Position numbers and translations under genes: made by a program. A model generated the notes under the pieces. It made no database searches. It saw only the letters and a program-made list of their open reading frames with translations, and was not told where the DNA came from. Below, piece after piece: positions 3,938-47,262 of a DNA stretch of 54,464 nucleotides. How positions within the stretch are numbered: position 1 is the stretch's first letter; the number at the start of each line of letters is the position of its first letter. This DNA comes from Parcubacteria group bacterium GW2011_GWA2_40_14 (lineage in GTDB: Bacteria; Patescibacteriota; Minisyncoccia; Phycocordibacterales; DATDWN01), in assembly GCA_000996025.1 (NCBI GenBank), contig LBYF01000003.1, positions 1 to 54,464 of the forward strand. Reading direction: 5' to 3'.

Positions 3938-4807
3938 TTAGTACAATTTTACTCCAATTGCTTCCCTAACTGCTTCCATTTTCTTTTCAGCTTTTTGTTT
4001 TGCGCGTTTGCCTCCTTCTTTTAAAATATCTAGAACATATTCCGTGTCTTGTTCTAGTTGGGCGCGCTTTTCACGCAGTGGCCCGATAAATGCTTTGAGA
4101 TCGCTAATCAGAGCTTCTTTCAGTATTTTATACTTCCCTTTATTCTCATCATATAGTGAAGCAAGCTCGCTTTCTGATTTAAACAATCTGTGAATAGCAT
4201 ACACATTTTCTGGTCTTTCACCAGATGAATCAGTCACAATGGACATCACCGCTTTTTCAATCTCTTCGTCGCTAGCAAAAAGCGGAATGGTATTTCCATA
4301 ACTCTTGCTCATTTTTCGTCCGTCAGTACCGGGCACCACTGCTACTTCTGGCATTATTTTTACATCAGGTAATTTGAAAATATCGGCATTAAAAACTCTG
4401 TTGAATTTTTCCGCCGTGTCGCGAGCGTATTCAACATGCTGTTTCTGGTCCTGGCCGACAGGCACAATATCCACATCGTATAGCAAAATATCTGCGGCCA
4501 TGAGCATGGGGTAATTAAATAAACCGACAGTAATTTCCCTACCATTTGTTATTGCGTCTTTGTAGGCATGAGACCTTTCCAGATACGGCATTGGCGTGAT
4601 AGTGTCAAAAATCCAGGCCAGTTCGGTATGTTCTGATACATCAGACTGCTTAAATATAGTGCATTTCTGCGGGTCAAGACCGATAGCCAAGAAATCAAGA
4701 GCTAGGTCCAAAATGTTTCTCTGCATCTTTTCCTTGTTCTGAACAGAATTCATGGCATGATAGTCCGCAAGAAAAAATATGCAATTGTAGTCCTCTTGCA
4801 TATCCAC
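3938..4807 (-). pseudogene. trpS: N-terminally truncated tryptophanyl-tRNA synthetase copy
   Basis: 289 codons, otherwise intact (ADYHAM, GQDQKQHVEYARD, KMSKS). About 35 N-terminal residues including the HIGH-type loop are missing. In-frame TAA lies 11 codons upstream of the first possible start (GTG at 4807). An intact trpS is at 8751..9746. Confidence 0.75.
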
Positions 4808-7586: not shown

Positions 7587-8735
7587 CTAACCAGTTTTTT
7601 GACCTGTTACGACAATGTAAGCGCCGCCGTTCAGTGTCGAATCGGCCAACTGCTTATCCATCATCATGATTGACTTCTGGACCTCCGGCTGGTTTTCAAA
7701 AAGATCATTTGGCAAAATGGCACTAAGGGTCGGGTAGGTCTGAATCTCATCTATGGTAATTTTTCCTCTGACCAAATCGGAAATTTCACTCACAGAATAT
7801 GGTTTGGCATAAACCGACAGTGTTCGATTGCCTAAGTGAACATCGAGACATTCATCAATAGAATTTAGTTCCGCTGCCAATCCTGTTGACCACGGTATAA
7901 AGTCCCATCGATATCGAAGTGCTTCAACATTGTAAAACGAGAGTAGAAATCTGCCGTGCGGTACAAGAACTCTGCCAATTTCCTTCAGAACTCCTGATAT
8001 CTCTCTGATGTCGCTGGCTGTTCCAAGATTCATAACAGCAAACGACACAGAATTATCCGGCTCAGGAATTCCCTTTTGAATGTCTACAACACCGAAAGAA
8101 GCATTTTTTACACCGAAGTCATTCGCTCTCTTTTTTGCTTTTTCGATCATATCCTGGCTGACATCGTAGCCGATAACCCGCTCAAACCGACCAGCAAATT
8201 GAAAGGTTAGCCGTCCAGTGGCACATCCGAGATCAAGAAAAACATATCTGTTTGACAACTTTCGGAGTTCTTGTTCCAGCACTTCATTCTCGAATGCTAG
8301 GTAGTCATGTGTTGCAAAGAAAGCTTTGTCGTAATCAGTATCGTACGTTTTTGACCATCGCTTGGCCAAAACTAGTAGATTCCGATCGAGTGACTTTTGC
8401 CACTCGCTTTCAACAGCAGGGGTCTTTCCCTTTTTCTTTTTTCGGCTTGTTATGTTTTGCAACTGAATCATTTGTTGCTTGCATGACTCACCGATAATAG
8501 TGTAGAGAACTGTCTCGGCAAAATGAGGGTTCATCTTGTTTTTCCGAGCCCATATTCGAACTTGTGCAAGACGTTTGCTTTCGATCTTAGCCCTGAAAAT
8601 CTTTTCAGCCTTAGAAATCTTGTATTCTCCAACTTGAAGAGCCAAATCCATTCTTCTCTTCAAGAGAGCCATGAGCATCATGTCAACTTTGGCAAGGCGA
8701 CCACCAAGCTGACTGAGATTTAACAGCTTATGCAT
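7587..8735 (-). CDS. Chorismate mutase (AroQ-type) fused to a class I SAM-dependent methyltransferase
   Basis: The N-terminal ~95 aa LGGRLAKVDMMLMALLKRRMDLALQVGEYK...GESCKQQ carry the AroQ Arg/Arg/Lys/Ser/Gln pattern. The C-terminal part has VFLDLGCATGRL (motif I) and a Rossmann methyltransferase layout. GGAGG SD present. Lies 15 nt downstream of trpS. Confidence 0.7.
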   Translation of the reverse strand: MHKLLNLSQLGGRLAKVDMMLMALLKRRMDLALQVGEYKISKAEKIFRAKIESKRLAQVRIWARKNKMNPHFAETVLYTIIGESCKQQMIQLQNITSRKKKKGKTPAVESEWQKSLDRNLLVLAKRWSKTYDTDYDKAFFATHDYLAFENEVLEQELRKLSNRYVFLDLGCATGRLTFQFAGRFERVIGYDVSQDMIEKAKKRANDFGVKNASFGVVDIQKGIPEPDNSVSFAVMNLGTASDIREISGVLKEIGRVLVPHGRFLLSFYNVEALRYRWDFIPWSTGLAAELNSIDECLDVHLGNRTLSVYAKPYSVSEISDLVRGKITIDEIQTYPTLSAILPNDLFENQPEVQKSIMMMDKQLADSTLNGGAYIVVTGQKTG

Positions 8736-8750
8736 GATCTGACCTCCACT

Positions 8751-9746
8751 TCAATAAATGACGATTCCTATTTTTTCGCGGACTTCTTTTACTGTTTCAA
8801 TGATGAGCGCTCGAGCTTTTTTGCCACCCTCGTGGAGAACCTCTCGAACAAAATCGTTTTTGTCGACTATCTCTACACGAGCGGCTTGAAATGGTTCTAG
8901 AACTTTGGCAATGTTGTCCACAAGCTGATGTTTGCATTCAACACAACCAATTTCCGCTTTTAAACACGCATTGGCGATAGCTCGAATTTCAATTTCCCCA
9001 ACCGTTACCAATTCATGGACAGGATACACGGACTGGCACCTTTTGTATGGATCGCCTGGATCAGAACGAAGTTTGCGTTCAATGTCGGTAACGCCAAATT
9101 TCAGATATCGTTCACGTATGACTGGAATAGTCATACTGAGTTCGATAGCATTATCCGCGTCCGACTTGCTCATCTTTTTTCCATCCAGTCCTGGAACGCG
9201 AATCATTTCTGTCATCATTTCAGGAAGAATAAATGTCTCACCGAAACGATTATTGAATTTTCGAGCAAGAGATCTCGCAAGTTCAACATTAGGAACTTGA
9301 TCTTCTCCAACCGGAACAAGCGTTGCTTTAGGACCTAAAATATCAGCTGCCATAAGAACAGGATATGTCAAAAGTCCAAGGTTAACGTTGTCAGGATTTT
9401 TTTTGATCTTTTCCTTGAAAGTCGGAATTCGTTCGAGTTCCCCCACCTGCTGAATCATACTCAAATAGAGACACAACTCAGAGATTTCAGGAATACTTGA
9501 TTGAGCGTAAATAATCGACTGCTCTGGGTCAAGACCCGCCGCAATGTAATCCTTGACGATTTCAGTCAGATTACCCCGAATTTCTTCAGGGCTTTCCATT
9601 GTTGTCAGTGAATGCAAGTCAGCAATGAAATACATGCAAGTATTTCCTGGTTGCTGAAATTTCACAAAGTTGATGACGGCGCCAAGAAAGTTACCCAATT
9701 GTAATCTAGATGTGGCGCGAATACCGGACAAAACGATTTGTGACAT
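8751..9746 (-). CDS. trpS: Tryptophanyl-tRNA synthetase, full length, with a four-Cys motif
   Basis: LSGIRATSRLQLGNFLGA, GEDQVPNVELAR and KMSKS motifs. Cys237-x23-Cys261-x6-Cys268-x2-Cys271 in the C-terminal domain. Confidence 0.9.
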   Translation of the reverse strand: MSQIVLSGIRATSRLQLGNFLGAVINFVKFQQPGNTCMYFIADLHSLTTMESPEEIRGNLTEIVKDYIAAGLDPEQSIIYAQSSIPEISELCLYLSMIQQVGELERIPTFKEKIKKNPDNVNLGLLTYPVLMAADILGPKATLVPVGEDQVPNVELARSLARKFNNRFGETFILPEMMTEMIRVPGLDGKKMSKSDADNAIELSMTIPVIRERYLKFGVTDIERKLRSDPGDPYKRCQSVYPVHELVTVGEIEIRAIANACLKAEIGCVECKHQLVDNIAKVLEPFQAARVEIVDKNDFVREVLHEGGKKARALIIETVKEVREKIGIVIY

Positions 9747-26688: not shown

Positions 26689-27177
26689 CTATATAATATT
26701 TTTATTTCCATTATAAGTCTTATACACTTTTTTAAAATAAGTAGGGATATAAGGCAAGTATTTCTTGAAAGTTCTAGTCGGTAAGTACTGAATTGACCGA
26801 ATAATTTTTCTGCAGTTTTTCTCTCCGCAATTACATTTCATTTTCCACATATCATCTCCTTCAATTATGGAATAGTCTATGGTGATTTCTTCTCCTTCTT
26901 TTATATTCTTAAGAGCAACCATTGTTACCTTACCTTTTATACTGGAATTTGGATTACATGAGTGATTCAAATATTCATTTGGATATTGCGGGTCAATCCA
27001 TCTATGTTTTCCAATTCCTATCCAATCTGGATACGTTAACGACTCTTTTTTATTTCTTGGAACAAAAAGTTTTATTTCTCCCTTAATATGCTGTATAACT
27101 TCGTCTTTTTTAATATTCTCACCGGCAAAAAGACCGATTCTATCTATTTTACTTGTGCTGTGATAAATATGTTTCAT
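26689..27177 (-). CDS. SET-domain protein (lysine methyltransferase fold), the only intact copy
   Basis: GLFAGENIKKDEVI, NHSCNPN, EEITIDYS and post-SET CNCGEKNCRK. Confidence 0.85.
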   Translation of the reverse strand: MKHIYHSTSKIDRIGLFAGENIKKDEVIQHIKGEIKLFVPRNKKESLTYPDWIGIGKHRWIDPQYPNEYLNHSCNPNSSIKGKVTMVALKNIKEGEEITIDYSIIEGDDMWKMKCNCGEKNCRKIIRSIQYLPTRTFKKYLPYIPTYFKKVYKTYNGNKNII

Positions 27178-27350
27178 GTGTTTGCAATTTTAACATATAA
27201 TTTATAAAAAATCTATCTTTTATATTACAGGTGATATTTAATTGTACAACAACCTCGTTAATCTTGACAAGATTTCGCCATTTGATATTCTGTATATAGA
27301 CGCTCTTTTGAGTGTACTATCAAACCCACGAGGAGAAAGGACTTGGAAAA

Positions 27351-27695
27351 ATGGCACCAGTTTTAACACTTCCAGACATTTCGGAAGTCACACCACTTTC
27401 CGACAAAGACCAGCCGATGATCGACGAGATTATTGATGTGTTGCGAAGGCATGGCAACCTAAATCGGTTTGGTCTTGTGCTTCTCCATCAGCATTTTAAC
27501 CTTGCTGATGACGAGGTGTTAGTTGAATCGACCGACAAAGAAAATCGTACTCAAACGACTAAGCCGATAAAGAAAGACGATCTGTCACGGATGAATCATA
27601 CAGAAACGTCATGGCGTCTTGATACAGGAAAGCCGATGATGGCTTGCTCGTGTATTAAGTTCGGTGACGATCATCAGCACCTGAGCAGAGGCTGA
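27351..27695 (+). CDS. Hypothetical protein (114 aa)
   Basis: GGAG-rich SD before ATG 27351. Higher GC than surroundings. Own hairpin downstream. No motif recognised. Confidence 0.5.
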   Translation: MAPVLTLPDISEVTPLSDKDQPMIDEIIDVLRRHGNLNRFGLVLLHQHFNLADDEVLVESTDKENRTQTTKPIKKDDLSRMNHTETSWRLDTGKPMMACSCIKFGDDHQHLSRG

Positions 27696-27702
27696 CTCCA
27701 TA

Positions 27703-27731
27703 CCCCGCTACTTGTAAATAAGGTGGCGGGG
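27703..27731 (+). terminator. Hairpin terminator candidate
   Basis: CCCCGCTACTT / AGGTGGCGGGG stem with a weak T tract. Confidence 0.5.
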
Positions 27732-27758
27732 TAAACTATATTTTAGTATCATAGTTTT

Positions 27759-28448
27759 ATGATTTTTTGGAATCAAAAAGAAGTCCTGTTTAGTGGAATA
27801 TCTGAATACGTCAATAAATACGGGGTAAAATCTGTCCTTGATATAGGCGCGGGCGACGGAAATCTAGCGTTGAAAATATCAAACATTATAAATGACTACA
27901 CTGCCATAGAAAATGACAATAGAAAAATCGAGAATTTGAGAAAACTTAGATTGAAAGTAATAAAAGGAAATTTTCCAGCGGTAAAAATTGCAAAAAAATA
28001 CGATTTAGTTCTTTCTTCACATTCTGTACCTGAAAATATTGAGGAAATCGAACAATTTTTAAAAGAAGCTTGTAGGTTGGTAAAATCAGGAGGTTTATTG
28101 CTCATCATTACCTTTAAGGGCGGAAAAGGAGATGTTTTTAAATTAAAAGAAAAATTAAAAAGAACTGCCGAAATAGCAGACAAGGAGCACTTCGAAAAAA
28201 TAAGTAATACTTTAAGAAAACTGGGAAAGATTAAGATTAAAAAGAAAATAAGTACAATTAAATCGGATAAGTTAAGGGATATTATCAAAATCGTACGATT
28301 TTCTTTAGGAAATTCAAAAAATCAAGAACTTAAGAAAAAAATAATAAGTTTAATGAAAAAACACTTTAAAACAAATGGTAAATACCTTTTTAAATTTGAA
28401 CATCTTTTTCTGTCATTGAAGAAATATGGTCGACAACATGCAAAATGA
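27759..28448 (+). CDS. Class I SAM-dependent methyltransferase
   Basis: VLDIGAGDGNLALKI motif I and GGLLLIITF motif. Confidence 0.7.
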   Translation: MIFWNQKEVLFSGISEYVNKYGVKSVLDIGAGDGNLALKISNIINDYTAIENDNRKIENLRKLRLKVIKGNFPAVKIAKKYDLVLSSHSVPENIEEIEQFLKEACRLVKSGGLLLIITFKGGKGDVFKLKEKLKRTAEIADKEHFEKISNTLRKLGKIKIKKKISTIKSDKLRDIIKIVRFSLGNSKNQELKKKIISLMKKHFKTNGKYLFKFEHLFLSLKKYGRQHAK

Positions 28449-28453
28449 AAAGT

Positions 28454-28543
28454 TTAAAAAAGTATTCCTTTTTTAAAAGATTTTTTTGTAAAAATTCCCT
28501 TCCCGGATATTTTACTTTTTGCAACATATAAATCTTTTTTCAT
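28454..28543 (-). pseudogene. SET-domain gene 5' remnant (29 codons)
   Basis: MKKDLYVAKSKISGKGIFTKKSFKKGILF*. About 92% identical over ~75 nt to the remnant at 30920-30997. Confidence 0.75.
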
Positions 28544-28740
28544 ATATAATGGTATTCTATTTATTCTATCAGATTGATAAAAAATATAATACAATCAAAA
28601 TAATGAAAAACCAAAAAAATATATTTTATAAAAAATCTACCTTTTCACATAAGTCCAGTGTGGATAAAAAATGGTTAATTTGATGATTGACAAAATAGAT
28701 TTTAAGTTTACTATGTAGGGTAGAATTGGGAGGTATGGGT

Positions 28741-29850
28741 ATGAGTTCATTTCAAGTAAAAATAGTTGGGGATTTTTGCAATATACGTTGTACTTATTGC
28801 AGGAATCGTGATTTTGATCAAGATACAAATGTAGTGATGTCTATTGAGAAACTCGAGAAACTCTTTGTCTTTCTCAATTCATTACCACAAGCACAGATTC
28901 GTACGAATTGGCATGGGGGAGAGCCGCTACTTGCGGGCAAAAGATTCTTCAGTCATGTTTTGAGGCTGGAGAGTCAATATCAGCAAAAAATGTGGCGAAA
29001 TGTCGTTCAAACAAACGCCATGCTTGTTGATGATGAGTGGGCCAAATTTTTTCACGATAATAACTTCCTTATAGGAGTGAGTATTGATGGAAGCGAGAAA
29101 ACACACAACAGTGACAGAATTAATGTTGCGGGACGCGATACCTACAAAGAAGCAATGCGTGGTGTGGAAATCCTGCGACATCATGACATTTTTCCTGGTG
29201 TCATCTGCACCGTTACCAAAAAGACAGTGAGATATGCGGAAGAAATGCTTCTTGGTTTGGTGAACGCTGGATTCAAGGATATCGCTTTCAACGCTTTCTA
29301 TAACACAGCATCAGACTGTAATGGAGATACATACGGTCTGACAGATAAAGAGTGGCTGACGTTTCTTATAGAAATATTTGAAACTTGGCTTACTCTCAAC
29401 GACCCTACAGTTCATGTTCGTGAGTTAGATAGCATGCTCGCATGGACCAAGTCCAAGAGCGCTAACTCCTGTGTCTACAAAGGTACGTGCCACCAGTGGT
29501 TTGTCGTGGATTACACTGGGGACATCTATCCTTGTGAGAGGTTGGGTAGGACAACTCACTTCGGTAGTATTGATACCTTGAGAACTTTTCAAGACTTGAT
29601 GGATACTCCAGTCTTTCTCAACTGGAAAGAATCGATAGTTCAACTTCCAAAGAAATGTCAAGCTTGCAGTTTACAGTCATTGTGCCATAATGGCTGTGTG
29701 AGTCATAGAACTGCAGATGAAGAGGGGGTTCCCCTCTATACTTATTGCGAAAGCAGACTCGGTTTCTATGATTACATTATGAGAAGGCTTGGCGGAAAGG
29801 AGGTAAACAACCATGTCACTCAAAAACAGTTCTTTGTTGGAATCCCCTGA
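28741..29850 (+). CDS. Radical SAM enzyme with C-terminal SPASM domain (peptide-maturase/anSME-like)
   Basis: CNIRCTYC (CxxxCxxC), GGEPLL, and SPASM Cys clusters (CVYKGTCHQWFVVDYTGDIYPC, CQACSLQSLCHNGC). GGGAGG SD. ATG 28741 or 28735. Confidence 0.85.
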   Translation: MSSFQVKIVGDFCNIRCTYCRNRDFDQDTNVVMSIEKLEKLFVFLNSLPQAQIRTNWHGGEPLLAGKRFFSHVLRLESQYQQKMWRNVVQTNAMLVDDEWAKFFHDNNFLIGVSIDGSEKTHNSDRINVAGRDTYKEAMRGVEILRHHDIFPGVICTVTKKTVRYAEEMLLGLVNAGFKDIAFNAFYNTASDCNGDTYGLTDKEWLTFLIEIFETWLTLNDPTVHVRELDSMLAWTKSKSANSCVYKGTCHQWFVVDYTGDIYPCERLGRTTHFGSIDTLRTFQDLMDTPVFLNWKESIVQLPKKCQACSLQSLCHNGCVSHRTADEEGVPLYTYCESRLGFYDYIMRRLGGKEVNNHVTQKQFFVGIP

Positions 29851-30013
29851 AGAAGTTAAAAAGCTCCAATCTCAACTGTTAGAGAATCTGGCGCTTCAAG
29901 ACGCATTTGGTCGGATCGAGGATCCTAGTCGCTTTTCATCGGGAATACCAAAAATCACGAGCTATGATGATTTCCACTACGACGATTGTGGATACTCTGA
30001 TGCTCCGACGTAG
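29813..30013 (+). CDS. 66-aa candidate precursor peptide
   Basis: AAAGGAGG SD inside the 3' end of the rSAM gene, with a 38-nt overlap. MSLKNSSLLESPEEVKKLQSQLLENLALQDAFGRIEDPSRFSSGIPKITSYDDFHYDDCGYSDAPT has a single Cys in a C-x3-D context. A strong terminator follows. Confidence 0.55.
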   Translation: MSLKNSSLLESPEEVKKLQSQLLENLALQDAFGRIEDPSRFSSGIPKITSYDDFHYDDCGYSDAPT

Positions 30014-30071
30014 ACCATGATCAATGACAACAGCAAAAACCGACTCGGAGGAAATCACCAGTCAGTTAAAA

Positions 30072-30101
30072 AGCGGGTTCGCAAAAACCCGCTTTTCTTT
30101 T
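30072..30101 (+). terminator. Rho-independent terminator
   Basis: AGCGGGTT/AACCCGCT stem followed by TTTCTTTT. Confidence 0.8.
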
Positions 30102-30112
30102 AATATGAACGT

Positions 30113-30901
30113 ATGATTAATAAAAATATTTTAATGTCCTATGACGAGTATTCAAAAATTCAGCATGAGACTCCATATTTTTATATTTTTCGATCAGGAG
30201 GTCGGTTAACTTATTATTTCGGTTCTAATCATTCTCATGATCCAAATCACCCGCAATTCAATTTATTAAGGAAAAAATGGAACGAATTTACCAGTGAGAC
30301 TAGAGCTGTGAAAACGGTAGTTATTGTGGAAGCACATGAAATAGCTAAATTAGAAGCTACCATGGAGGAATCTATTATCAAGCATGGTGAGTCAGGCGCT
30401 GGGGCCTATTTGGCGTATGAATTTGAGTCATTGCTTATTTTTGGAGAACCTCATAATGATAAAATAATTGCCCATTTACTTAGAAATTTTTCTAAAGAAG
30501 AAATCCTCTTGTGGCATGTATGTCAGGCTATAAAATTTTGGCAACAGCACAAAATGGGTAGAAGCATACAAGAATTTCTGTCAAATCAAACGCAGAAATA
30601 TCGTAGATTACTAAATTGGCCGGACTTAGTTATATCTGTAGAGCTTATTAATACAATATATAAAAAGCTATTTAATCGAGAGCTAAATATTGATAATGAA
30701 AAAACACTCTCTGAAATCACCACTCCCGTAAGCATTCAATCGAGGATCAATGAACTATCTAGAAGTCAATCTATATATAGAAATGAATATGTATTGGGTC
30801 AGATAGAGAAATATTGGAGCGAAGGATACAACATCTTTGTAATTTACGGGGCTGGTCATGCAGTAATGCAAGAACCTGCTATCCGTAGTTTAGTAAGCTA
30901 G
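30113..30901 (+). CDS. Hypothetical protein, possibly TraB/PrgY/GumN/Tiki-superfamily
   Basis: YFGSNHSHD (GxxH), VVIVEAHE and the C-terminal VIYGAGHAVMQEP (GAxH) fit the superfamily pattern. Weak, by-eye call. Confidence 0.4.
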   Translation: MINKNILMSYDEYSKIQHETPYFYIFRSGGRLTYYFGSNHSHDPNHPQFNLLRKKWNEFTSETRAVKTVVIVEAHEIAKLEATMEESIIKHGESGAGAYLAYEFESLLIFGEPHNDKIIAHLLRNFSKEEILLWHVCQAIKFWQQHKMGRSIQEFLSNQTQKYRRLLNWPDLVISVELINTIYKKLFNRELNIDNEKTLSEITTPVSIQSRINELSRSQSIYRNEYVLGQIEKYWSEGYNIFVIYGAGHAVMQEPAIRSLVS

Positions 30902-30919: not shown

Positions 30920-30997
30920 TCATATTTTAAAAGATTTTTTTGTAAAAATCCCCTTCCCGGATATTTGACTTTTTGCAACGTATAGATCTTTTTTCAT
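30920..30997 (-). pseudogene. SET-domain gene 5' remnant (25 codons)
   Basis: MKKDLYVAKSQISGKGIFTKKSFKI*. Confidence 0.75.
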
Positions 30998-31031
30998 ATT
31001 TTATACATTCAGTATATTATAAAAAGTAATT

Positions 31032-33033: not shown

Positions 33034-33150
33034 TCATCCAGATTTTATTCCAGACAGAAGACATTTTGTATTCAACAAATTTTTAATATTCTCCCCGGCA
33101 AAAAGACCGATTTCATCTATTTTACTTACACTATGATAAATATGTTTCAT
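33034..33150 (-). pseudogene. SET-domain gene 5' remnant (38 codons)
   Basis: MKHIYHSVSKIDEIGLFAGENIKN, then unrelated sequence. About 90% nt identity to the first ~70 nt of the intact gene at 27108-27177. Confidence 0.8.
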
Positions 33151-33236
33151 ATTTTTTATAGTATATCATATAAAATTCTGTTTCTTCAATATCACTATTT
33201 TAATAGCTTGAAATTATACAATAAAGCCAAATTTTA

Positions 33237-33938: not shown

Positions 33939-34538
33939 ATGATAAAAAAAGATGCAACGTTATTGGTGACTTCTTCCTTATTAAAGAAAGCTGTGTATTT
34001 TGCGGCCAAAAAACATGACGGGCAATATCGCAAAGGAACAGATGTGCCATATTTTGCTCATCCAGTCTTGGTGGCATTAGGCGTTTTTAAATATTCACAG
34101 GATGAAAACGTGCTGGCAGTGGCAATTTTACACGATGTGATGGAAGATTGCGACGTTACATATACGGAACTGAAAGAGCTATTCGGCAGTAAGGTGGCCA
34201 ATATTGTCAAGGAAGTGAGTTCTCCGACAAATATACCGGTAAAAAACAGAAGCTGGAAAGATAGAAAGGTGTCGTATATGCGGCAAATTAAAAATATTTC
34301 AAAAGAAGCTTGCATTATCGTGGCGGTTGATAAAATGACCAATATGCAAGCGTATTTCGGAGCTACTGAAGCCAACAACAAAAAAAGTCTGGGTAAGTTC
34401 GGAGGTACATTAACGGATTATTTTTGGTATTATGGAGAAATATATAATATACTAAAATCAAATCTTGGAAATCATCCTGTTATAAAAGAATACGAAAAGC
34501 TTTTAAAAAATCATGAGAAAAACTTGCAAAAAGACTAG
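33939..34538 (+). CDS. HD-domain (p)ppGpp hydrolase-like protein (small alarmone hydrolase)
   Basis: AAKKHDGQYRKGTDVPYFAHPVLVA and AILHDVMEDCDVTYTELKELFGSKVANIVKEVS match the RelA/SpoT hydrolase (HD_4) blocks. Confidence 0.8.
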   Translation: MIKKDATLLVTSSLLKKAVYFAAKKHDGQYRKGTDVPYFAHPVLVALGVFKYSQDENVLAVAILHDVMEDCDVTYTELKELFGSKVANIVKEVSSPTNIPVKNRSWKDRKVSYMRQIKNISKEACIIVAVDKMTNMQAYFGATEANNKKSLGKFGGTLTDYFWYYGEIYNILKSNLGNHPVIKEYEKLLKNHEKNLQKD

Positions 34539-34578
34539 TATTCCACTAAGCTACTGTTAGAAAGGATGGTAAAAAAAG

Positions 34579-35067
34579 ATGGGTCAAGAGTTGATTCTCT
34601 TGTATCGAAAACTAATCGGTTGTTCCATTGAGTTTATTGCGGACGAGATTGCCACGACAGTTAAGCCGGTACTTTCGCAAAGTCCGACTATCAGCTACCG
34701 AATCAAAAGTCAAGACACACTGGCAAAAAAGATGATTCTGGTGAAGACAGAATCAATTATTGATATTGACGATGTGTATGCTTTCCGGATTCTCGTTTCC
34801 TCAGCGAACGAAGCATACTTGGTTCTTAAGGCGCTGACGAAGTCTTTCCGAGGTTTTTTAGACCATGACTATATTGCCAATCCAAAGACCCGTCCTGACA
34901 AACCTCATCTAGATGGAAAAAGTCTTAAGTTGCTTCAGTTCATCGCTTACAAAAACAACGTTCCATTTGAAATACAAATCACGACTTTTGAATGGAACGA
35001 GAGCAATGAATTGCTTCACGACGAATACCACCGAGAAAAATATCCAATTATAGACCATTCAGATTGA
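34579..35067 (+). CDS. RelA/SpoT-type nucleotidyltransferase (small alarmone synthetase; toxSAS candidate)
   Basis: YRIKSQDTLAKKM, DVYAFRILV and FEIQITTFEWNESNELLHDEYHREKY match the synthetase-domain blocks. Only 162 aa. Confidence 0.7.
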   Translation: MGQELILLYRKLIGCSIEFIADEIATTVKPVLSQSPTISYRIKSQDTLAKKMILVKTESIIDIDDVYAFRILVSSANEAYLVLKALTKSFRGFLDHDYIANPKTRPDKPHLDGKSLKLLQFIAYKNNVPFEIQITTFEWNESNELLHDEYHREKYPIIDHSD

Positions 35068-35187: not shown

Positions 35188-35276
35188 ATTTTATATAGTA
35201 TATCATCCGTTTCATTGACAATAAAAGTGATTTGTGTAAAATAACATACAGATTTATGAAGAAAGGAGGTGAAAAT

Positions 35277-35348
35277 ATGGGATACCTGTATGCTGACAAG
35301 CCGGGTGTGGATAAACCACCACATCTTCCCAGACCGCGTCCAAGGTGA
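35277..35348 (+). CDS. 23-aa proline/arginine-rich peptide (oncocin-like core) or leader peptide
   Basis: AAAGGAGGTGAAAAT-ATG (ideal SD and spacing). MGYLYADKPGVDKPPHLPRPRPR*. Not in the track (short, and masked by the artificial 5' extension of the peptidase ORF). Confidence 0.5.
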   Translation: MGYLYADKPGVDKPPHLPRPRPR

Positions 35349-35355
35349 CAAAACA

Positions 35356-35385
35356 AAACGGGAGGATAGAGATATCTTCCCGTTT
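35356..35385 (+). terminator. 13-bp hairpin 8 nt after the peptide stop (terminator/attenuator candidate)
   Basis: AAACGGGAGGATA-GAGA-TATCTTCCCGTTT, followed by CAAATTTATTT (interrupted T tract). Confidence 0.55.
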
Positions 35386-35406
35386 CAAATTTATTTAAAA
35401 TTTTAT

Positions 35407-37401
35407 ATGGAAAAACTTAAAAAAGACAAGTATGCTTTTTTTGAAAAAAATACGGAGAGAACCGAAAAATGGATACTGTCAGAACAGTCCAAAACAACGG
35501 ATTATTTCAAAAATAACTCATATAAGAAAAGACTTTTCAAGCGGTTGGAAAAGATAAAAGACATTGATGAAAAGTTTCTCCCAGTCATACGAGGAGAAAT
35601 GTATTTTTTCCGTTGGAGAAAAAAGGGTGAACAGGTCTCTTCTTTGTATATGCAGAAAAATGCCAAATCAAAACAGGAAAAAATACTGGATTGTAACGCT
35701 ATGTTTAAAAAACACGGTTTGGTCGTAACTGACTGGACTGTTTCTAAAACGGGTAAGCTTCTTTCATATTCTGTTTCTAAATCAGGAAATGACAAATCAT
35801 CAATCCATGTCATAGATATTCAAAAAAGAAAAAATTTAACTGACTTTATTCCGGAAGAGATATATCCTGAATTCGAATGTTGGATGCCGGATGAGAGCGG
35901 TTTTTATTATAGCAGAAATAATCCCGGTACATCAAAAGAAGATGTAAAAATGCAAAATAAAATCTATTTTCACAGGATTGGCCACGGTTTTGCAAACGAC
36001 AGATACTTCTTCGGTAGAGACCTGAGCAAAACAGACAGAGTGCAAATGAAAATATCGGATGATGGGAATTATTTTCTTGTTACCGTTTTTGATTTTGCAC
36101 ATGAAAAAGAAAATGCAGAGATATACTTGGGAATTAGCTCCAACAAAAAGATAATCAGAATTCTCGGTAAAGAAAATTGCTTGCGATACCCGGTCTTGCA
36201 TAGAAACTGCGTCTATATCTTAAGTAATAAAGACACTCCTCACTGGAAAATTGAAAAGGCTTCCGTAAAAAATTTATTGGAAGGAAAGAAGAATTGGCGG
36301 GTTATAATCAAAGAAAATAAAAACCGAGTGATAGAATCTTTCAGTTTTATACAAGATAAAATGTTTTTAATCACACTGGAAAATGTTTCCTCTCATATCG
36401 GCGAATACACTCTATCTGGAAAATATAAGAGAAATATCAAACTGCCAGCTATAGGCACAGTATCCAAAATATATTGCCAAAAAGAAGGCAATGAGTTATT
36501 TTTCGCTTTTTCCTCTTTTGTTTTTCCAAAAGTCATATACAATCTTTCATTAAAAAATGATAAATTATCCGTTTTCTTTCAAAGAAAAATTTCAAATTCT
36601 TTAGAAAATACGACGGTAAGACAACATTTCTTCAAATCAAAAGACGGGGTTAAAGTTCCTATGTTTTTAATTCATAAAAAAACAATAAAAAAAGACGGCA
36701 ACAATCCCCTGCTTTGCTACGGCTATGGCGGTTTTGGTACGTCGTTAACGCCGTCTTTTGACCCGGGTATTATTCCTTTTCTGGAGGATGGCGGGATATA
36801 CGCGGAGATAAACATTCGAGGAGGAGGCGAATTCGGCGAAAAGTGGCACGAAGCCGGAAAATTATTCAATAAACAAAATTCTTTTGATGATTTTATATCC
36901 GGAATTAAATATCTTTACAAAAATAAATACAGTCGGCCTGAAAAAACCGCCATATTCGGTTGGAGCAACGGAGGACTGCTGGTTGGAGCAGTCGTAACTC
37001 AAGAGCCGGAAATATGCAAAGTGGCTGTTATCGGCGCTCCAGTTTTAGATATGGAAAAGTATTACTTATTTGACGGCGGCCGGTATTGGATACACGAATA
37101 CGGAAACCCTAAAAATAAAAGATATTTGGAAAATCTCCTTTCATATAGTCCGTATCACAATATACAAAAAGAAACAAGCTATCCTTCAATGCTTATCTTG
37201 AGCGCCAGAGAAGATGACAGGGTTCATCCAATGCATGCGTATAAATTTGTGGCTAAAATGAGAGATATTGCAAGACTGAAAAATCCTCTGCTGTTGCGAT
37301 TGGAAGAAAAAGCCGGTCATAGCGGAGCAAACGGCATGAATAAATCAAATGAACAACAAGCGGACATATTGTCTTTTATATACAAAGAATTGAGAACTTA
37401 A
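35407..37401 (+). CDS. Prolyl oligopeptidase (S9A family)
   Basis: N-terminal KYAFFEKNTERTEKWILSEQSKTTDYF (PYRWLED-type region), beta-propeller, catalytic GWSNGG, D and H (AGHSG). Start MEKLKKD at 35407 rather than 35269. Confidence 0.9.
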   Translation: MEKLKKDKYAFFEKNTERTEKWILSEQSKTTDYFKNNSYKKRLFKRLEKIKDIDEKFLPVIRGEMYFFRWRKKGEQVSSLYMQKNAKSKQEKILDCNAMFKKHGLVVTDWTVSKTGKLLSYSVSKSGNDKSSIHVIDIQKRKNLTDFIPEEIYPEFECWMPDESGFYYSRNNPGTSKEDVKMQNKIYFHRIGHGFANDRYFFGRDLSKTDRVQMKISDDGNYFLVTVFDFAHEKENAEIYLGISSNKKIIRILGKENCLRYPVLHRNCVYILSNKDTPHWKIEKASVKNLLEGKKNWRVIIKENKNRVIESFSFIQDKMFLITLENVSSHIGEYTLSGKYKRNIKLPAIGTVSKIYCQKEGNELFFAFSSFVFPKVIYNLSLKNDKLSVFFQRKISNSLENTTVRQHFFKSKDGVKVPMFLIHKKTIKKDGNNPLLCYGYGGFGTSLTPSFDPGIIPFLEDGGIYAEINIRGGGEFGEKWHEAGKLFNKQNSFDDFISGIKYLYKNKYSRPEKTAIFGWSNGGLLVGAVVTQEPEICKVAVIGAPVLDMEKYYLFDGGRYWIHEYGNPKNKRYLENLLSYSPYHNIQKETSYPSMLILSAREDDRVHPMHAYKFVAKMRDIARLKNPLLLRLEEKAGHSGANGMNKSNEQQADILSFIYKELRT

Positions 37402-42325: not shown

Positions 42326-43189
42326 CTACTTGGAGGTTACATCTGGATAAGAACCGAGGCAATGCATGGGATGAAGAGAAATCCCAAGACTCCGAAATTC
42401 CTCCCAAGCCTCGTTTAAGGTTGGGTCCGTGACGTGTCCCCTAACCTCAATGACAAACGTGTACTCCCATTTTTTACCTAAAATGGGATTGGGGTAGACA
42501 AGCAGGACACTTATGCCCCTTTTTGCAAACACATCCAGTGTTTTGCACAAAACGCCGGACTGATCTTGAGTCAGGTTAACGAGAAAACAAGTCTTGTCTT
42601 TTCCCGTAGGGTCTGCGTGCTCTTTGCCGAGAATCCAGAAACGAGTCTCACTGTTCTTGTGGTCTGTCACTGAGTCTGGATAGACCAGTTTTAGATCATA
42701 GAGTTTGAGTGCTGCCTCTGAGGCAAGCGCGGCAACTCTTGGGTCATTGTGAGCTTCGGCTGCCGCTTCACCAGTTGAATTGGAATTCTCAACCTTAACC
42801 CCTTTGCTACGTAACCCTGAGACAAACTTTTCACACTGTTGAACTCCGGCAGTATGAGAGAGAAGGCGTTCTGGTGAAGTCCCTACGCCATCCCTCGACA
42901 TACAGAAAAATCGGATAGGAACAGTAACTTCACCCCAGATTTTGACACCAAGGTGCGCATCATGAACCTCAATCGCTCGGATTGTTTCTGCAACAACTCC
43001 AACAATAACATTCTCAATAGCCACAACCCCATATGCTACTTCCTTTGTACCTACTGCATAGCAAATGTCGTTATGAGTCTTGTATGGAACAGAGACTACG
43101 TTTTCGGGACGACCTTGAAAAAAGTTCTGGAGCGCCTGGTGGCCAAAAGTTGCACCATCAGGCCCGAGATATCCAACTTTGGTACTCAT
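42326..43189 (-). CDS. pheA: Prephenate dehydratase with ACT domain
   Basis: VGYLGPDGATFGHQA, SHTAGVQQC and an ACT-like C-terminus. ATG 43189 overlaps the tyrS TGA (ATGA). Confidence 0.85.
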   Translation of the reverse strand: MSTKVGYLGPDGATFGHQALQNFFQGRPENVVSVPYKTHNDICYAVGTKEVAYGVVAIENVIVGVVAETIRAIEVHDAHLGVKIWGEVTVPIRFFCMSRDGVGTSPERLLSHTAGVQQCEKFVSGLRSKGVKVENSNSTGEAAAEAHNDPRVAALASEAALKLYDLKLVYPDSVTDHKNSETRFWILGKEHADPTGKDKTCFLVNLTQDQSGVLCKTLDVFAKRGISVLLVYPNPILGKKWEYTFVIEVRGHVTDPTLNEAWEEFRSLGISLHPMHCLGSYPDVTSK

Positions 43190-44439
43190 GGCTCTGCTCC
43201 TTCCCAACTAGCAAGGACTCTGATACGTTTTTTCTTTCCGGCACTTAGGAGCAGTTCGTTTTTCCTGAACATTTCTTCGGTAATGAGAGTCTTGCCCGAA
43301 ATTACCTTCTGACCTTGGACATAGGCACCTCCCTGCTCAGCCAGTCTATGAGCTTCGGACTTAGTTGACACTAAACCCGTCTCAACAAACAAGTCGGCCA
43401 AAGTTATGCCTTTAACAAATTTCTCTCGAGCAATGCTAGCTGTAGGCATAGACGCCATACCTTCAGATGTTTCACCAAACGCCGCTCGAGAAGCGTCCTT
43501 AGCTTTATTCGCCTCCTCCTCGCCGTGAGCAAGGAAGGTTACTTCAAAAGCTAGAACCTCTTTTGCCTTTCGGAGATCTGCTCCCTCGAGCTTTCCTAGC
43601 TCGTTCACCTCTTCGAGCGGTAGGAAAGTGAAAAACTTCAGAAAACTGACAACATCCCTGTCATCAGTATTTATCCAGTACTGGTAAAACTCGTACGGAG
43701 AAGTTTTCTCTCCATCCAGCCAGATAGTTCCCGACTCCGTCTTTCCCATCTTTCCACCTGTAGCCGTGGTAAGGAGTGGAAAGGTCAAAGCGTGGACGCT
43801 ATGGCCAGTTACCTTACGGACAAGGTCGTTGCCCGCAAGAATGTTTCCCCATTGGTCGTCCCCACCCATTTGGATTGTGCAGTTATACTTCTGGAACAAG
43901 ACCAAAAAATCATACGCCTGCAAGATCTGGTAGTTAAACTCTATGAAGGAAAGACCTTCCTGTCGTTCGAGACGGAGTTTGTATGCCTCCGAACGAATCA
44001 TCTCGTTTACCTTGAAGTGTCGTCCGATATCACGGAGGAAATCAATGTAATTGAGATTGAGAAGCCAATCGGCATTGTTCAGAAACAATCCTTGTTTTCC
44101 ATCCAGAACAGCGTACCGTTTCAGTTGGGTAAGAATTTTTTCTCCGTTTGCGCTGATTTCTTCCAACGTCATCATCCGACGTAGTTCGGTCTTTCCACTT
44201 GGATCACCGATCATGGTTGTTCCGCCACCGATAATGGCTATCGGAAAATGGCCATGCCGTTGAAGCTGGGCAATTGCCATTATCGGCACTAAACTTCCAA
44301 CATGTAGACTATCAGCTGTTGGGTCAAAGCCAACATAAAAAACTTGGCCTTTTTCTGACAGAACTTTTTCAAGTGCCTTTTCATCAGTACTTTGCTTCAC
44401 AAATCCGCGTTTTTTGAGTGTGTCTAGGATGTCGTTCAT
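43186..44439 (-). CDS. tyrS: Tyrosyl-tRNA synthetase
   Basis: FYVGFDPTADSLHVGS (HIGH region), KMGKTESG (KMSKS region) and a C-terminal S4-like domain. Confidence 0.92.
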   Translation of the reverse strand: MNDILDTLKKRGFVKQSTDEKALEKVLSEKGQVFYVGFDPTADSLHVGSLVPIMAIAQLQRHGHFPIAIIGGGTTMIGDPSGKTELRRMMTLEEISANGEKILTQLKRYAVLDGKQGLFLNNADWLLNLNYIDFLRDIGRHFKVNEMIRSEAYKLRLERQEGLSFIEFNYQILQAYDFLVLFQKYNCTIQMGGDDQWGNILAGNDLVRKVTGHSVHALTFPLLTTATGGKMGKTESGTIWLDGEKTSPYEFYQYWINTDDRDVVSFLKFFTFLPLEEVNELGKLEGADLRKAKEVLAFEVTFLAHGEEEANKAKDASRAAFGETSEGMASMPTASIAREKFVKGITLADLFVETGLVSTKSEAHRLAEQGGAYVQGQKVISGKTLITEEMFRKNELLLSAGKKKRIRVLASWEGAEP

Positions 44440-45723: not shown

Positions 45724-47055
45724 TTATCTTGTTACAAGGAGAAAGCTCGTGTTATTTATTTTGTCATCCTGCAAATTCTCCGCGATTATCTCCAAATCAT
45801 ATAATTCTGAAAGATGCTTTGGTCCAAGGATAGCAGTTGTTTTGGGTAACCTGTCTCTGGCAAGAGCCTGGGCAGCTTTTGCGGTATCAACTAGATTTCC
45901 TTTTCCGCTTTCTAATATAAGGTGAGGAAAATTACGGGAAAGGGTATTTTTGCATTGCTTGAAAACTTGAGAATGAGCCATGATTTTTCTGATTCTATCT
46001 TTAGTAATCTCTTTTCTTTTCATAAGAAAATGTTGGATTGAAATCACAACTTCTTCTACAATAGTGAATTTATAGCGTGACATGGCTTTGATAGATTCAC
46101 TGACAATTCCTCCGATAGAATTATGAGTTGCAAATAAACCATAATCTATACTGCCCTCGTACAAAGCCTTAAGAACATTTTCAGATGTATAGAGATAGGA
46201 TATTTTATAATCATTAAGACCTGTGGTTTTTAGATAATGCAAGATAGCCTGTTCATTGAAACTACCTATACCACCTTGAATGCCAAATGTTTTATAATTC
46301 CACTTATGTATGGGAGCTGGCAGAAGCTTATTGTATAAGCGGTCATATGCTCTACCTAACTGAATACGCATTTTTTTGGTGTACTGGTTATAATTTTGCA
46401 AACTATTGAAAAGTTCCCAGCTATCATTGCAGGTCTGCTCCATTACTTTTTGCAGTTCTTCAGCGCCTCTAGTATCAATGGAAGTTTTAGAAAATTTAAA
46501 TTCAGAAAGTAATCGCCCAATAAAATGAGTTACCCCTTGAGAACGAGCTGCTAATTTATCATGCTCTTTTGATGTTAATTCCACAATATTAAGACCTTTG
46601 GCACTAAAATAATTTTTCCAAAATAGATATGTCTTCCTGTCAGATTTGAACTGGTTCATAACAATCCGCAAATTATTAAAACCCTCCTTACTGCTATCTG
46701 GTCCAAACATTGGGTGGGTTAGTATCGCACCAGTTTTTGTGCCCTTAAGATGTTGTGAAAAAATTTTTTCAGGAAAAGCTTTCACGGACAATGTATCTAT
46801 AAGTGTATGGCTATCTCTAAAATATTTTTTATGTTTTTTTATGACAGCGTCAAATGTAGAAATAGGCACACAATAAAAAATAACCTGACTCTCATAGATA
46901 TTCTTAAGATTAGAACTGATTGTTGTTCTGGTATCAAGTTTGTATTTTTTGAATACCTCTCTATTTTTATCAAAAAGAACAATATCAAAGTGACCCGCCA
47001 AAAGACGGTATAGAGTTTTGCCAAATCTCCCAAAACCTATTATGCCAACTTTCAT
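45724..47055 (-). CDS. Prephenate dehydrogenase fused to a prephenate dehydratase domain (no ACT)
   Basis: N-terminus KVGIIGFGRFGKTL (NAD fold) plus the TyrA dimerisation region. C-terminus FGIQGGIGSFNEQA ... AHSQVFKQC ... NNTSFLLVTR (PDT blocks). Confidence 0.8.
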   Translation of the reverse strand: MKVGIIGFGRFGKTLYRLLAGHFDIVLFDKNREVFKKYKLDTRTTISSNLKNIYESQVIFYCVPISTFDAVIKKHKKYFRDSHTLIDTLSVKAFPEKIFSQHLKGTKTGAILTHPMFGPDSSKEGFNNLRIVMNQFKSDRKTYLFWKNYFSAKGLNIVELTSKEHDKLAARSQGVTHFIGRLLSEFKFSKTSIDTRGAEELQKVMEQTCNDSWELFNSLQNYNQYTKKMRIQLGRAYDRLYNKLLPAPIHKWNYKTFGIQGGIGSFNEQAILHYLKTTGLNDYKISYLYTSENVLKALYEGSIDYGLFATHNSIGGIVSESIKAMSRYKFTIVEEVVISIQHFLMKRKEITKDRIRKIMAHSQVFKQCKNTLSRNFPHLILESGKGNLVDTAKAAQALARDRLPKTTAILGPKHLSELYDLEIIAENLQDDKINNTSFLLVTR

Positions 47056-47262
47056 ACTGATGAATATAACAGTGTGCAATTATTTCCACAATAGGATACA
47101 GTTTCTGATTCAGAACATTTTTTGCAACATATGAAATACTTGTTACATTTATCACATTTCCTTTGCAATAATCACTCGCCTTTTCAATCCAAGTTTAATT
47201 GGACCTTTAATTAATTAATTTTGAAAATTGTGACATTGGTTATTGATTGGAAATTGTAAATT

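Follow-up and report, generated by a model that had tools for sequence, protein, structure and literature searches.

A conserved three-gene radical SAM cassette of Parcubacteria that may encode a triceptide-like peptide with repeated Tyr-x-Asp cyclophanes

The locus analysed here lies in a 54,464-nt stretch of DNA (positions 1 to 54,464 of contig LBYF01000003.1; hereafter the window) from Parcubacteria group bacterium GW2011_GWA2_40_14, a member of the Candidate Phyla Radiation (CPR). It comprises three genes on the plus strand: a gene for a radical S-adenosylmethionine (SAM) enzyme with a SPASM domain, an open reading frame (ORF) of 66 codons that overlaps its end, and, beyond a terminator-like hairpin, a gene for a 262-aa protein, referred to below as protein C. 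Together they are treated as a candidate cassette for a modified ribosomal peptide, with the following features:

28687..28714, + strand: promoter-like site TTGACA-16-TACTAT upstream of the radical SAM gene, from a consensus scan (10 of 12 positions matching; a consensus match only)
28741..29850, + strand: radical SAM/SPASM peptide maturase, 369 aa (Pfam Radical_SAM, Fer4_12, SPASM)
29796..29803, + strand: Shine-Dalgarno sequence AAAGGAGG of the peptide ORF, within the radical SAM coding sequence and 9 nt 5' of the ATG at 29813
29813..30013, + strand: precursor peptide ORF, 66 aa, overlapping the radical SAM stop by 38 nt; syntenic in more than 40 loci
29891..29917, + strand: recognition-type motif of the leader, A27-L-Q-D-A-F-G-R-I35, kept in orthologs and distant subgroups
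29963..30001, + strand: core Y51-D-D-F-H-Y56-D-D-C59-G-Y61-S-D63, with three Tyr-x-Asp and a single Cys
30069-30096, + strand: intrinsic-terminator-like hairpin from a scan, 11 pairs and a T-run, between the peptide ORF and the 262-aa gene
30113..30901, + strand: protein C, 262 aa, putative metal-dependent hydrolase, a predicted alpha/beta protein downstream of the hairpin

Loci for comparison were fetched through relatives of the enzyme (80 genome and 39 metagenome loci, pooled DNA of about 1 Mb) and carry labels such as L001 or L121. The order of radical SAM gene, small ORF and 262-aa gene was kept in 30 of the 34 related loci with sufficient downstream DNA, and enzymes with conserved synteny and a conserved leader ranged from 100% down to about 33% identity. 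The enzyme had 336 homologs, the named ones being from CPR/Parcubacteria (Zambryski-, Yonath-, Yanofsky- and Pacebacteria), and the window sequence was present in metagenomes from groundwater and soil. No transporter or immunity gene conserved alongside the cassette was found among the related loci.

Relatives of the peptide had to be found through synteny, because a word-based protein search with the 66-aa sequence returned only the identical sequence, on 52 contigs; an NCBIfam scan of the peptide gave nothing. In every close relative with sufficient downstream DNA, a small ORF began at or just after the enzyme stop. A hidden Markov model (HMM) of the leader retrieved 41 ORFs at E <= 0.05 from the pooled DNA (25,000 stop-to-stop segments), all of them adjoining the enzyme gene, and its sole off-target match was in L062 (E = 0.72). 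Among close relatives, nonsynonymous change in the peptide frame (pN 0.22-0.44) was below synonymous change (pS 0.6-0.99, with synonymous sites saturated), and dN/dS was about 0.2 where computable. The synteny, the leader HMM and the excess of pS over pN thus identified the peptide ORF as a conserved gene, and purifying selection on its frame indicated a real cassette of maturase and precursor. In the window, the radical SAM gene runs 14 codons (29809-29850) beyond the stop used by close homologs, which accounts for the 38-nt overlap; the stretch that holds the Shine-Dalgarno sequence encodes GGKEV, the same residues with which the enzyme genes of L001 and L081 end before their stop codon.

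That the small ORF is fortuitous and the enzyme acts elsewhere was considered, since the word-based search gave no peptide homologs and a search for RNA runs turned up no transcripts. More than 40 syntenic ORFs with a common leader and core grammar, the strong Shine-Dalgarno sequence, nonsynonymous change well under synonymous change and the lack of a credible off-target leader match in 1 Mb make this explanation exceedingly improbable. A first-pass annotation of this DNA, made from the sequence alone, had described a minimal RiPP cassette that lacks a transporter and combines a maturase and a precursor with a protease or immunity protein, and had named conservation of the peptide ORF beside homologous radical SAM genes as a check; the comparison bore out this conservation and, with the third gene taken as encoding an accessory protein and with no transporter dedicated to the cassette, the layout. 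Its reading of the individual elements also held, namely the CxxxCxxC motif with two auxiliary Cys groups, the Shine-Dalgarno sequence in the last enzyme codons ahead of the 66-aa ORF, the single Cys of the peptide in the context C-G-Y-S-D (C59), and the terminator followed by a 262-aa ORF with GxxH...E...GAGH blocks.

Of the 23 intergenic regions that were folded, most had an equivalent hairpin. The stems varied in a compensatory fashion (GCGGG/CCCGC, GTGAG/CTCAC, GCAGA/TCTGC and others), and therefore a stop or attenuation point before the third gene is itself a conserved feature; most hairpins of the closer relatives retained a loop near TTGCAAAA. At the equivalents of this region in L001, L002, L084-L086, L088, L091, L092, L096 and L110, DNA identity was 75-84%, above that of the coding regions on either side in these loci. 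The conservation of the hairpin exceeds the needs of a plain terminator.

The enzyme showed the Cys pattern of the radical SAM/SPASM superfamily, CxxxCxxC together with the two-cluster pattern of SPASM. Its radical SAM motif is C13-x3-C17-x2-C20, and eight auxiliary-cluster cysteines (C244, C250, C265, C306, C309, C315, C319 and C336) aligned one-to-one with those of the anaerobic sulfatase-maturating enzyme (anSME) 4K36. All 11 cluster cysteines thereby paired with 4K36 ligands, and the auxiliary ones were invariant or nearly so in 36 homologs. The Pfam matches to PF04055 (57.7 bits) and PF13186 (23.2 bits) both exceeded their cut-offs. The database version of the protein, with 371 aa, corresponds to an alternative start at 28735. 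The N-terminus begins directly at the radical SAM motif, so there is no RRE domain.

All curated maturase models scored below their cut-offs. The best NCBIfam match was anSME (TIGR03942, 237.8 bits vs. a cut-off of 349.45), followed by the dynobactin maturase DynA (187.8 vs. 450) and by PapB (NF047865, 142.3 vs. 340, aligned end to end); AmcB, DarW, GrrM/OscB, DarE, YhhB, FxsB and XyeB came next in this order, all far under their cut-offs, and the SCIFF maturase model TIGR03974 reached 66.9 bits vs. 425. Six further members of the clade gave the same order, with anSME scores of 242-287 bits, and DynA was the best curated model after anSME in every member tested. Among structures in the PDB, anSME 4K36 ranked first (164 bits), ahead of CteB (61) and the triceptide synthase ChlB (53).

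As its closest sequence relative, anSME shares with the window enzyme the length, the lack of an RRE domain and three [4Fe-4S] sites. The enzyme could accordingly be thought to oxidise Cys or Ser to formylglycine, either at the C/S-P position of the neighbouring peptide or in an unlinked sulfatase, and it would suit this that anSME was the top match in both NCBIfam and the PDB and that the conserved Cys position of the peptides accepts Ser. However, the seven clade members scanned (window and six others) scored only 238-287 bits, the window ORFs scanned against Pfam included no sulfatase, and the motif C/S-x-P/A-x-R was not found in the neighbouring peptides, several orthologs of which have Ala at the position in question. 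Nor would a sulfatase substrate account for the tight translational coupling to a small acidic peptide whose leader is conserved. The resemblance itself is not evidence for sulfatase maturation, since cyclophane synthases of the DarE type likewise have anSME as their nearest sequence relatives although their chemistry differs (PMC10288494). Formylglycine formation is thus highly improbable, and the enzyme is probably not a bona fide anSME; firm clustering with anSMEs that have a cognate sulfatase elsewhere was what the earlier annotation had named as a refutation.

The peptides shared a layout of a leader motif, a variable linker, often with Pro, and a strongly acidic C-terminal core. The leader consensus A-[LI]-x-[GA]-A-[FL]-x-R-[IV] was present in all orthologs. 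The last 22 residues contained 28% Asp and 2% Lys plus Arg. The window core (YDDFHYDDCGYSD) has four [YFWH]-x-D motifs when the overlapping H55-Y-D is counted; ortholog cores included YSDYSDYSDCPAED, YTDYTDYTDCPGE, YVDCPYDDYQD, YVDSPYDDYQD, YEDYEDAPDP and YGDEYLDNTDQ. Across 29 peptides, [YFWH]-x-D occurred 113 times vs. 30.7 +/- 4.5 in composition-preserving shuffles (z-score 18), while aromatic-Asp spacing at i+1 was at chance level and at i+3 and i+4 was depleted. Each peptide carried 2-6 copies. In the 27 non-redundant peptides, 91 of the 105 post-leader Tyr/Trp residues began such a motif; its first position was Tyr in 88 cases, His in 10, Phe in 4 and Trp in 3, and its middle position took 13 residue types before the fixed Asp. 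The conserved feature of the core is therefore [Y/H/F/W]-x-D at exactly i,i+2, rather than the lone Cys.

That Cys had been the focus of the first-pass annotation, which proposed a ranthipeptide thioether between Cys59 sulfur and the beta-carbon of Asp63 (C-x3-D) as made by PapB, likewise a radical SAM/SPASM enzyme acting on Asp-rich cores. In its favour, besides the window peptide 16 of 29 relatives had C-x3-D vs. 5.6 expected, Cys was favoured in the context Y-x-D-C-P/G (21 occurrences vs. 0.9 expected), and the PapB model aligned over its full length. On the other side, the cores held 0-2 Cys, and 3 of the 29 orthologous peptides had none after the leader. The usual Cys was replaced by Ser in L106 and by Ala in L004, L090, L102 and L115 with the surrounding core unchanged, and some peptides ended in YVDCPGE, with no Asp at +4. 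C-x3-D occurred at most once per peptide and only where an aromatic-x-Asp unit began two residues past the Cys. PapA and SCIFF-type precursors have six Cys. The PapB score, moreover, lay far under its cut-off, and the Trp-rich cores of distant subgroups (below) had no Cys at all. The lone Cys is thus not the conserved target, and a ranthipeptide, in which it would be the crosslinked residue, is distinctly unlikely.

With fixed aromatic and Asp residues set exactly at i,i+2 around a free middle position, and with Trp recurring at a period of three in distant relatives, the cores match the signature of triceptides. In these, radical SAM/SPASM enzymes join the ring of an aromatic residue Ω1 to the beta-carbon of X3 in Ω1-X2-X3 motifs, which are often repeated and use all four aromatic residues as Ω1 (PMC11499958). 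Aromatic-x-Asp is a documented substrate: YxdB links Tyr-C3 to the Asp beta-carbon, and OscB joins Trp with either Asn or Asp (PMC11002830). The peptide family shows the repeated Ω1-X2-X3 pattern with aromatic Ω that marks triceptide precursors. As in the YxdB and OscB systems, a short leader precedes the repeats and the maturase is a single radical SAM/SPASM enzyme of about 360 aa lacking an RRE domain. We therefore read the locus, with moderate confidence, as a CPR-specific cassette for a ribosomal peptide in which the radical SAM enzyme would form several three-residue cyclophanes. Judged by sequence, the system probably works most like a Tyr-x-Asp triceptide pathway. The rank of DynA, a cyclophane maturase, directly after anSME and the complete set of auxiliary-cluster cysteines also count in favour of this reading.

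In the mechanism that we propose, the radical SAM gene and the peptide ORF would share a transcript running from the promoter-like site (28687-28714) as far as the hairpin 3' of the peptide ORF, and the 66-aa peptide would be recognised through the leader motif A-L-x-G-A-F-x-R-I. The SPASM enzyme would take a hydrogen from the beta-carbon of Asp at i+2 in each [Tyr/His/Phe/Trp]-x-Asp and bond this carbon to the aromatic ring at i, giving several three-residue cyclophane rings. Candidate sites in the window peptide are Y51-D53, Y56-D58 and Y61-D63, each ring costing 2 Da. Protein C, made by read-through or from its own start, may then trim the modified peptide as a metal-dependent hydrolase. 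The bond type, the residues joined and the role of protein C are what we infer here from the observed motifs, cluster cysteines and gene order.

Several observations weigh against this interpretation, in which the cyclophane bond is predicted from sequence comparison. Models of cyclophane-forming enzymes all scored below their cut-offs (GrrM/OscB 127.1 bits vs. 310, YhhB 107.2 vs. 445, XyeB 86.9 vs. 450, FxsB 95.5 vs. 370, AmcB 133.5 vs. 425), and the similarity to the solved triceptide synthase ChlB was distant, at 53 bits. Cyclophane formation offers no explanation for the enrichment of Y-x-D-C, the search for RNA runs returned no transcripts, and, as described below, the protein C family also occurs away from radical SAM genes. 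The enzyme thus scores below the cut-off of every curated model of three-residue cyclophane-forming enzymes (YxdB being compared by its published description only). The leader family is CPR-specific, and the partner is the 262-aa protein in place of the αKG-HExxH (alpha-ketoglutarate) hydroxylases, S9 proteases and transporters of triceptide clusters. The maturase clade, the leader family and the partner protein are all outside every curated family tested.

Other radical chemistry on the same motif might account for the grammar of the core, such as a Tyr-O to Asp-Cβ ether as made by DarE, a link within F54-H55-Y56, hydroxylation or oxidation of the Asp beta-carbon, or epimerisation. The radical SAM scaffold of triceptide enzymes is known to make C-C, C-N and C-O links (PMC11499958), and the daropeptide maturases DynA, DarW and DarE were among the better-scoring models. 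Aromatic-x-aromatic is the motif type of daropeptide maturases, and one such triplet, F54-H55-Y56 (within 29963-29980, residues 51-56), is nested between two Y-D-D motifs and kept in close relatives as F-Q-Y, W-K-Y, Y-V-Y or Y-T-Y. The triplet was, however, limited to one subgroup, whereas aromatic-x-Asp was universal and has a published C-C precedent, and we consider these chemistries unlikely. DynA, DarE and DarW make aromatic-to-Cβ C-C links and are also anSME-like, and a model of this group was second best throughout; yet the scores of 188-235 bits stood far from cut-offs of 450-650, there was no BamA-type Gram-negative context, and daropeptide cores are Ω1-X2-Ω3 and rich in Trp and Lys, in contrast to the poly-acidic Tyr-x-Asp cores found here.

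More distant CPR enzymes (about 30-37% identity) retained the leader type (LLGSIARVS, AIAGALERLS, ALQGAFERA) in precursors with Trp-rich cores of period three: WDKWDNWDQWDQ (L019, L022), WKGNWDNWKDWDQWQD (L028), WQQWGDWDNGHAD (L007), WDQWNNWDD (L008) and WSDTYPFDNYDDFVDFPD (L010). The leader family is thus far wider than the Tyr-x-Asp subgroup. No such peptides were found at non-CPR loci among the 80 best genome matches; these loci, mostly from Bacteroidales, Acidimicrobiia and Bacillota, presumably encode true sulfatase maturases. In the distant subgroup with the neighbour genes listed below, the third gene encoded, instead of the 262-aa protein, a conserved one of about 295 aa (N-terminus ...FFIQNLSEWHFS...). 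Its copy in L007 has the HExxH motif WHELIH and a weak SprT-like Pfam match, and an NCBIfam scan of the HExxH neighbours in distant subgroups returned nothing; by its motif, the protein could be a peptidase or an αKG-HExxH hydroxylase as in triceptide clusters. The distant genes are as follows:

L007:4230-4625, precursor ORF
L008:6899-7252, precursor ORF
L010:2548-2718, precursor ORF
L015:1309-1578, precursor ORF
L019:1325-1534, precursor ORF
L028:4343-4552, precursor ORF
L029:178-351, precursor ORF
L007:4675-5580, - strand, gene for the ~295-aa neighbour
L008:7305-8192, - strand, gene for the ~295-aa neighbour
L016:7214-8164, gene for the ~295-aa neighbour
L021:7305-8189, - strand, gene for the ~295-aa neighbour
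L032:7300-8172, - strand, gene for the ~295-aa neighbour

Protein C contains the blocks FGxxH (G37/H40), E73 and GAGH (G246/H249), and F36, G37, H40, F59, E73, R223, G246 and H249 were invariant in 25 homologs. Its AlphaFold2 model had an alpha/beta fold predicted with high scores (predicted local distance difference test 92.7, predicted TM score 0.87). The initial comparison with the TraB/PrgY superfamily stood only in part. What held was the order of motifs: two GxxH, a conserved Glu and a conserved Arg (R223) were arranged collinearly, and the series GxxH, E, G-E, acidic residue, R, GxxH matched, by eye, that of PrgY of pCF10 (GTAH, E45, GAE, D, R191, GQAH). Membership of the family was not supported, as the match to Pfam PF01963 (TraB_PrgY_gumN) reached 12.6 bits, below the cut-off of 26.8, and Foldseek gave no fold match to any PDB chain (best E = 0.42, TM <= 0.22), although the PDB searched does contain TraB-family chains. 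Among 25 relatives, 15 had sub-threshold PF01963 matches at E < 1 (best E = 5.6e-4) and none reached the cut-off, the best distant relative scoring 23.5 bits; the TraB-type matches were confined to the C-terminal R...GxxH block. An hhalign comparison of the family with PrgY likewise covered the last 36 columns only, comprising this block (P = 0.018). A profile of the protein C family against the PDB gave chance-level matches only, and PrgY itself matched TraB-family chains weakly (E = 0.056). A sub-threshold DUF5694 match was also seen in the family, an NCBIfam scan of protein C returned nothing, and protein C has no membrane segments, unlike PrgY. A remote relationship to TraB/Tiki proteins, rather than family membership, is plausible from these motifs.

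An exhaustive profile search returned 2212 representative clusters at E <= 1e-3, and the protein C family is therefore large and unannotated, separate from TraB/PrgY/GumN. Given its motifs and position, we propose that protein C trims the modified peptide by metal-dependent hydrolysis. It also stood beside some of the distant enzymes (L028, L029, L019), where the genes are ordered differently, and a 37%-identical member in L121 had no radical SAM gene nearby; since it is found away from such genes, protein C may not be dedicated to this peptide. The L121 member lies between a 213-aa HExxH (VHELIH) protein and a 369-aa protein (L121:2565-5954), and in L002 a gene for a 217-aa HExxH (HEITH) protein lies 3' of the protein C gene (L002:2558-3211), which suggests a second, independent association. 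A second, divergent protein C paralog was present about 5 kb upstream of the cassette on a Yanofskybacteria contig (L004:1141-1968).

A prolyl oligopeptidase (S9A, 710 aa) is encoded 4.4 kb downstream of the cassette (35269-37401), and as Pro stands before many of the cores (GIP|K, GEP|G, DNP|Y), it was weighed as a conserved leader protease. It was rejected, as elsewhere such a gene was near the cassette only in L098.

The peptide could also be a multi-copy precursor of a small Tyr-Asp crosslinked molecule, such as a quinone cofactor resembling pyrroloquinoline quinone (PQQ) or a metal-binding unit, and not an exported antibiotic. The radical SAM enzyme may then crosslink each Tyr-x-Asp and the putative 262-aa hydrolase cut the units out, so that each peptide would yield 2-6 molecules for intracellular use. 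In PQQ biosynthesis the radical SAM/SPASM enzyme PqqE joins a Tyr ring carbon to an acidic side-chain carbon in PqqA, a peptidase then excises the product, and to our knowledge no exporter is needed. The lack of an exporter or immunity gene, the acidity of the core and the repetition of the motif would fit such a role, as would the wide occurrence of both gene families in CPR and the parallel with the Tyr-Glu coupling by PqqE, although none of these points is a test of it. PqqA, however, offers only one site, E-x3-Y, and depends on PqqD, PqqB and PqqC, whereas the sites here are repeated at i,i+2, and PqqE was outside the best 25 NCBIfam matches of the window enzyme. A cofactor precursor is quite improbable.

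The edges of the cassette are marked by direct repeats of 85 nt that flank it on both sides and are 91% identical to each other:

28466..28550, - strand: left boundary repeat, 5' remnant of a SET-domain gene, at the cassette edge and outside the system
30920..31004, - strand: right boundary repeat, second SET-gene 5' remnant, at the cassette edge

The left repeat aligned with the 5' end of an intact SET gene at 26689-27177 (- strand). With a third remnant at 33080-33173, the SET family in the window comprises one intact gene and three 5' remnants, all on the minus strand, each remnant having about 30 codons and upstream DNA attached. The region from 27.2 to 33.2 kb looks like a string of inserted or recombined gene blocks, each closed by a SET 5' end. 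Two upstream genes were considered as cassette members and rejected, a methyltransferase gene (27759-28448) and a 127-aa ORF (27312-27695), as neither had a homolog in any related locus. The 127-aa ORF has a G+C content above that of its surroundings, a promoter-like site of its own (27264-27291) and a strong terminator-like hairpin (27701-27733); it had no Pfam or NCBIfam match and no homologs among the fetched loci. The higher G+C content of the cassette was dropped as a sign of horizontal transfer, since housekeeping genes of the window reach similar values.

The window is chromosomal DNA, and its remaining genes encode tRNA synthetases, UvrA/B, DnaB and similar housekeeping functions. Among them are three genes resembling class-Ib (Trp/Tyr-type) tRNA synthetases (3938-4807, 8751-9746 and 43186-44439), and a chorismate mutase-methyltransferase fusion and a pair of prephenate dehydratase genes, of which one is a fusion with prephenate dehydrogenase (7587-8735, 42326-43207 and 45724-47079). 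Aromatic amino-acid functions are unusually concentrated in this window for a CPR genome. At 33939-35067, a gene for a small protein with an HD domain (HD_4) adjoins one for a small protein with a RelA/SpoT domain; the pair resembles a small alarmone hydrolase and synthetase split in two.

CPR bacteria (Patescibacteria) are uncultured, their genomes are tiny, and very little secondary metabolism is known from them. The cassette described here is widely conserved in them, its three genes are easily synthesised, and it makes a testable prediction, namely that a poly-acidic peptide carries several Tyr-Asp cyclophane rings. If this prediction is correct, the enzymes would constitute a new maturase clade between the sulfatase maturases and the dynobactin/darobactin enzymes, acting on peptides with a new leader family, and protein C would offer a first way into the function of an unannotated family that spans about 2200 representative clusters.

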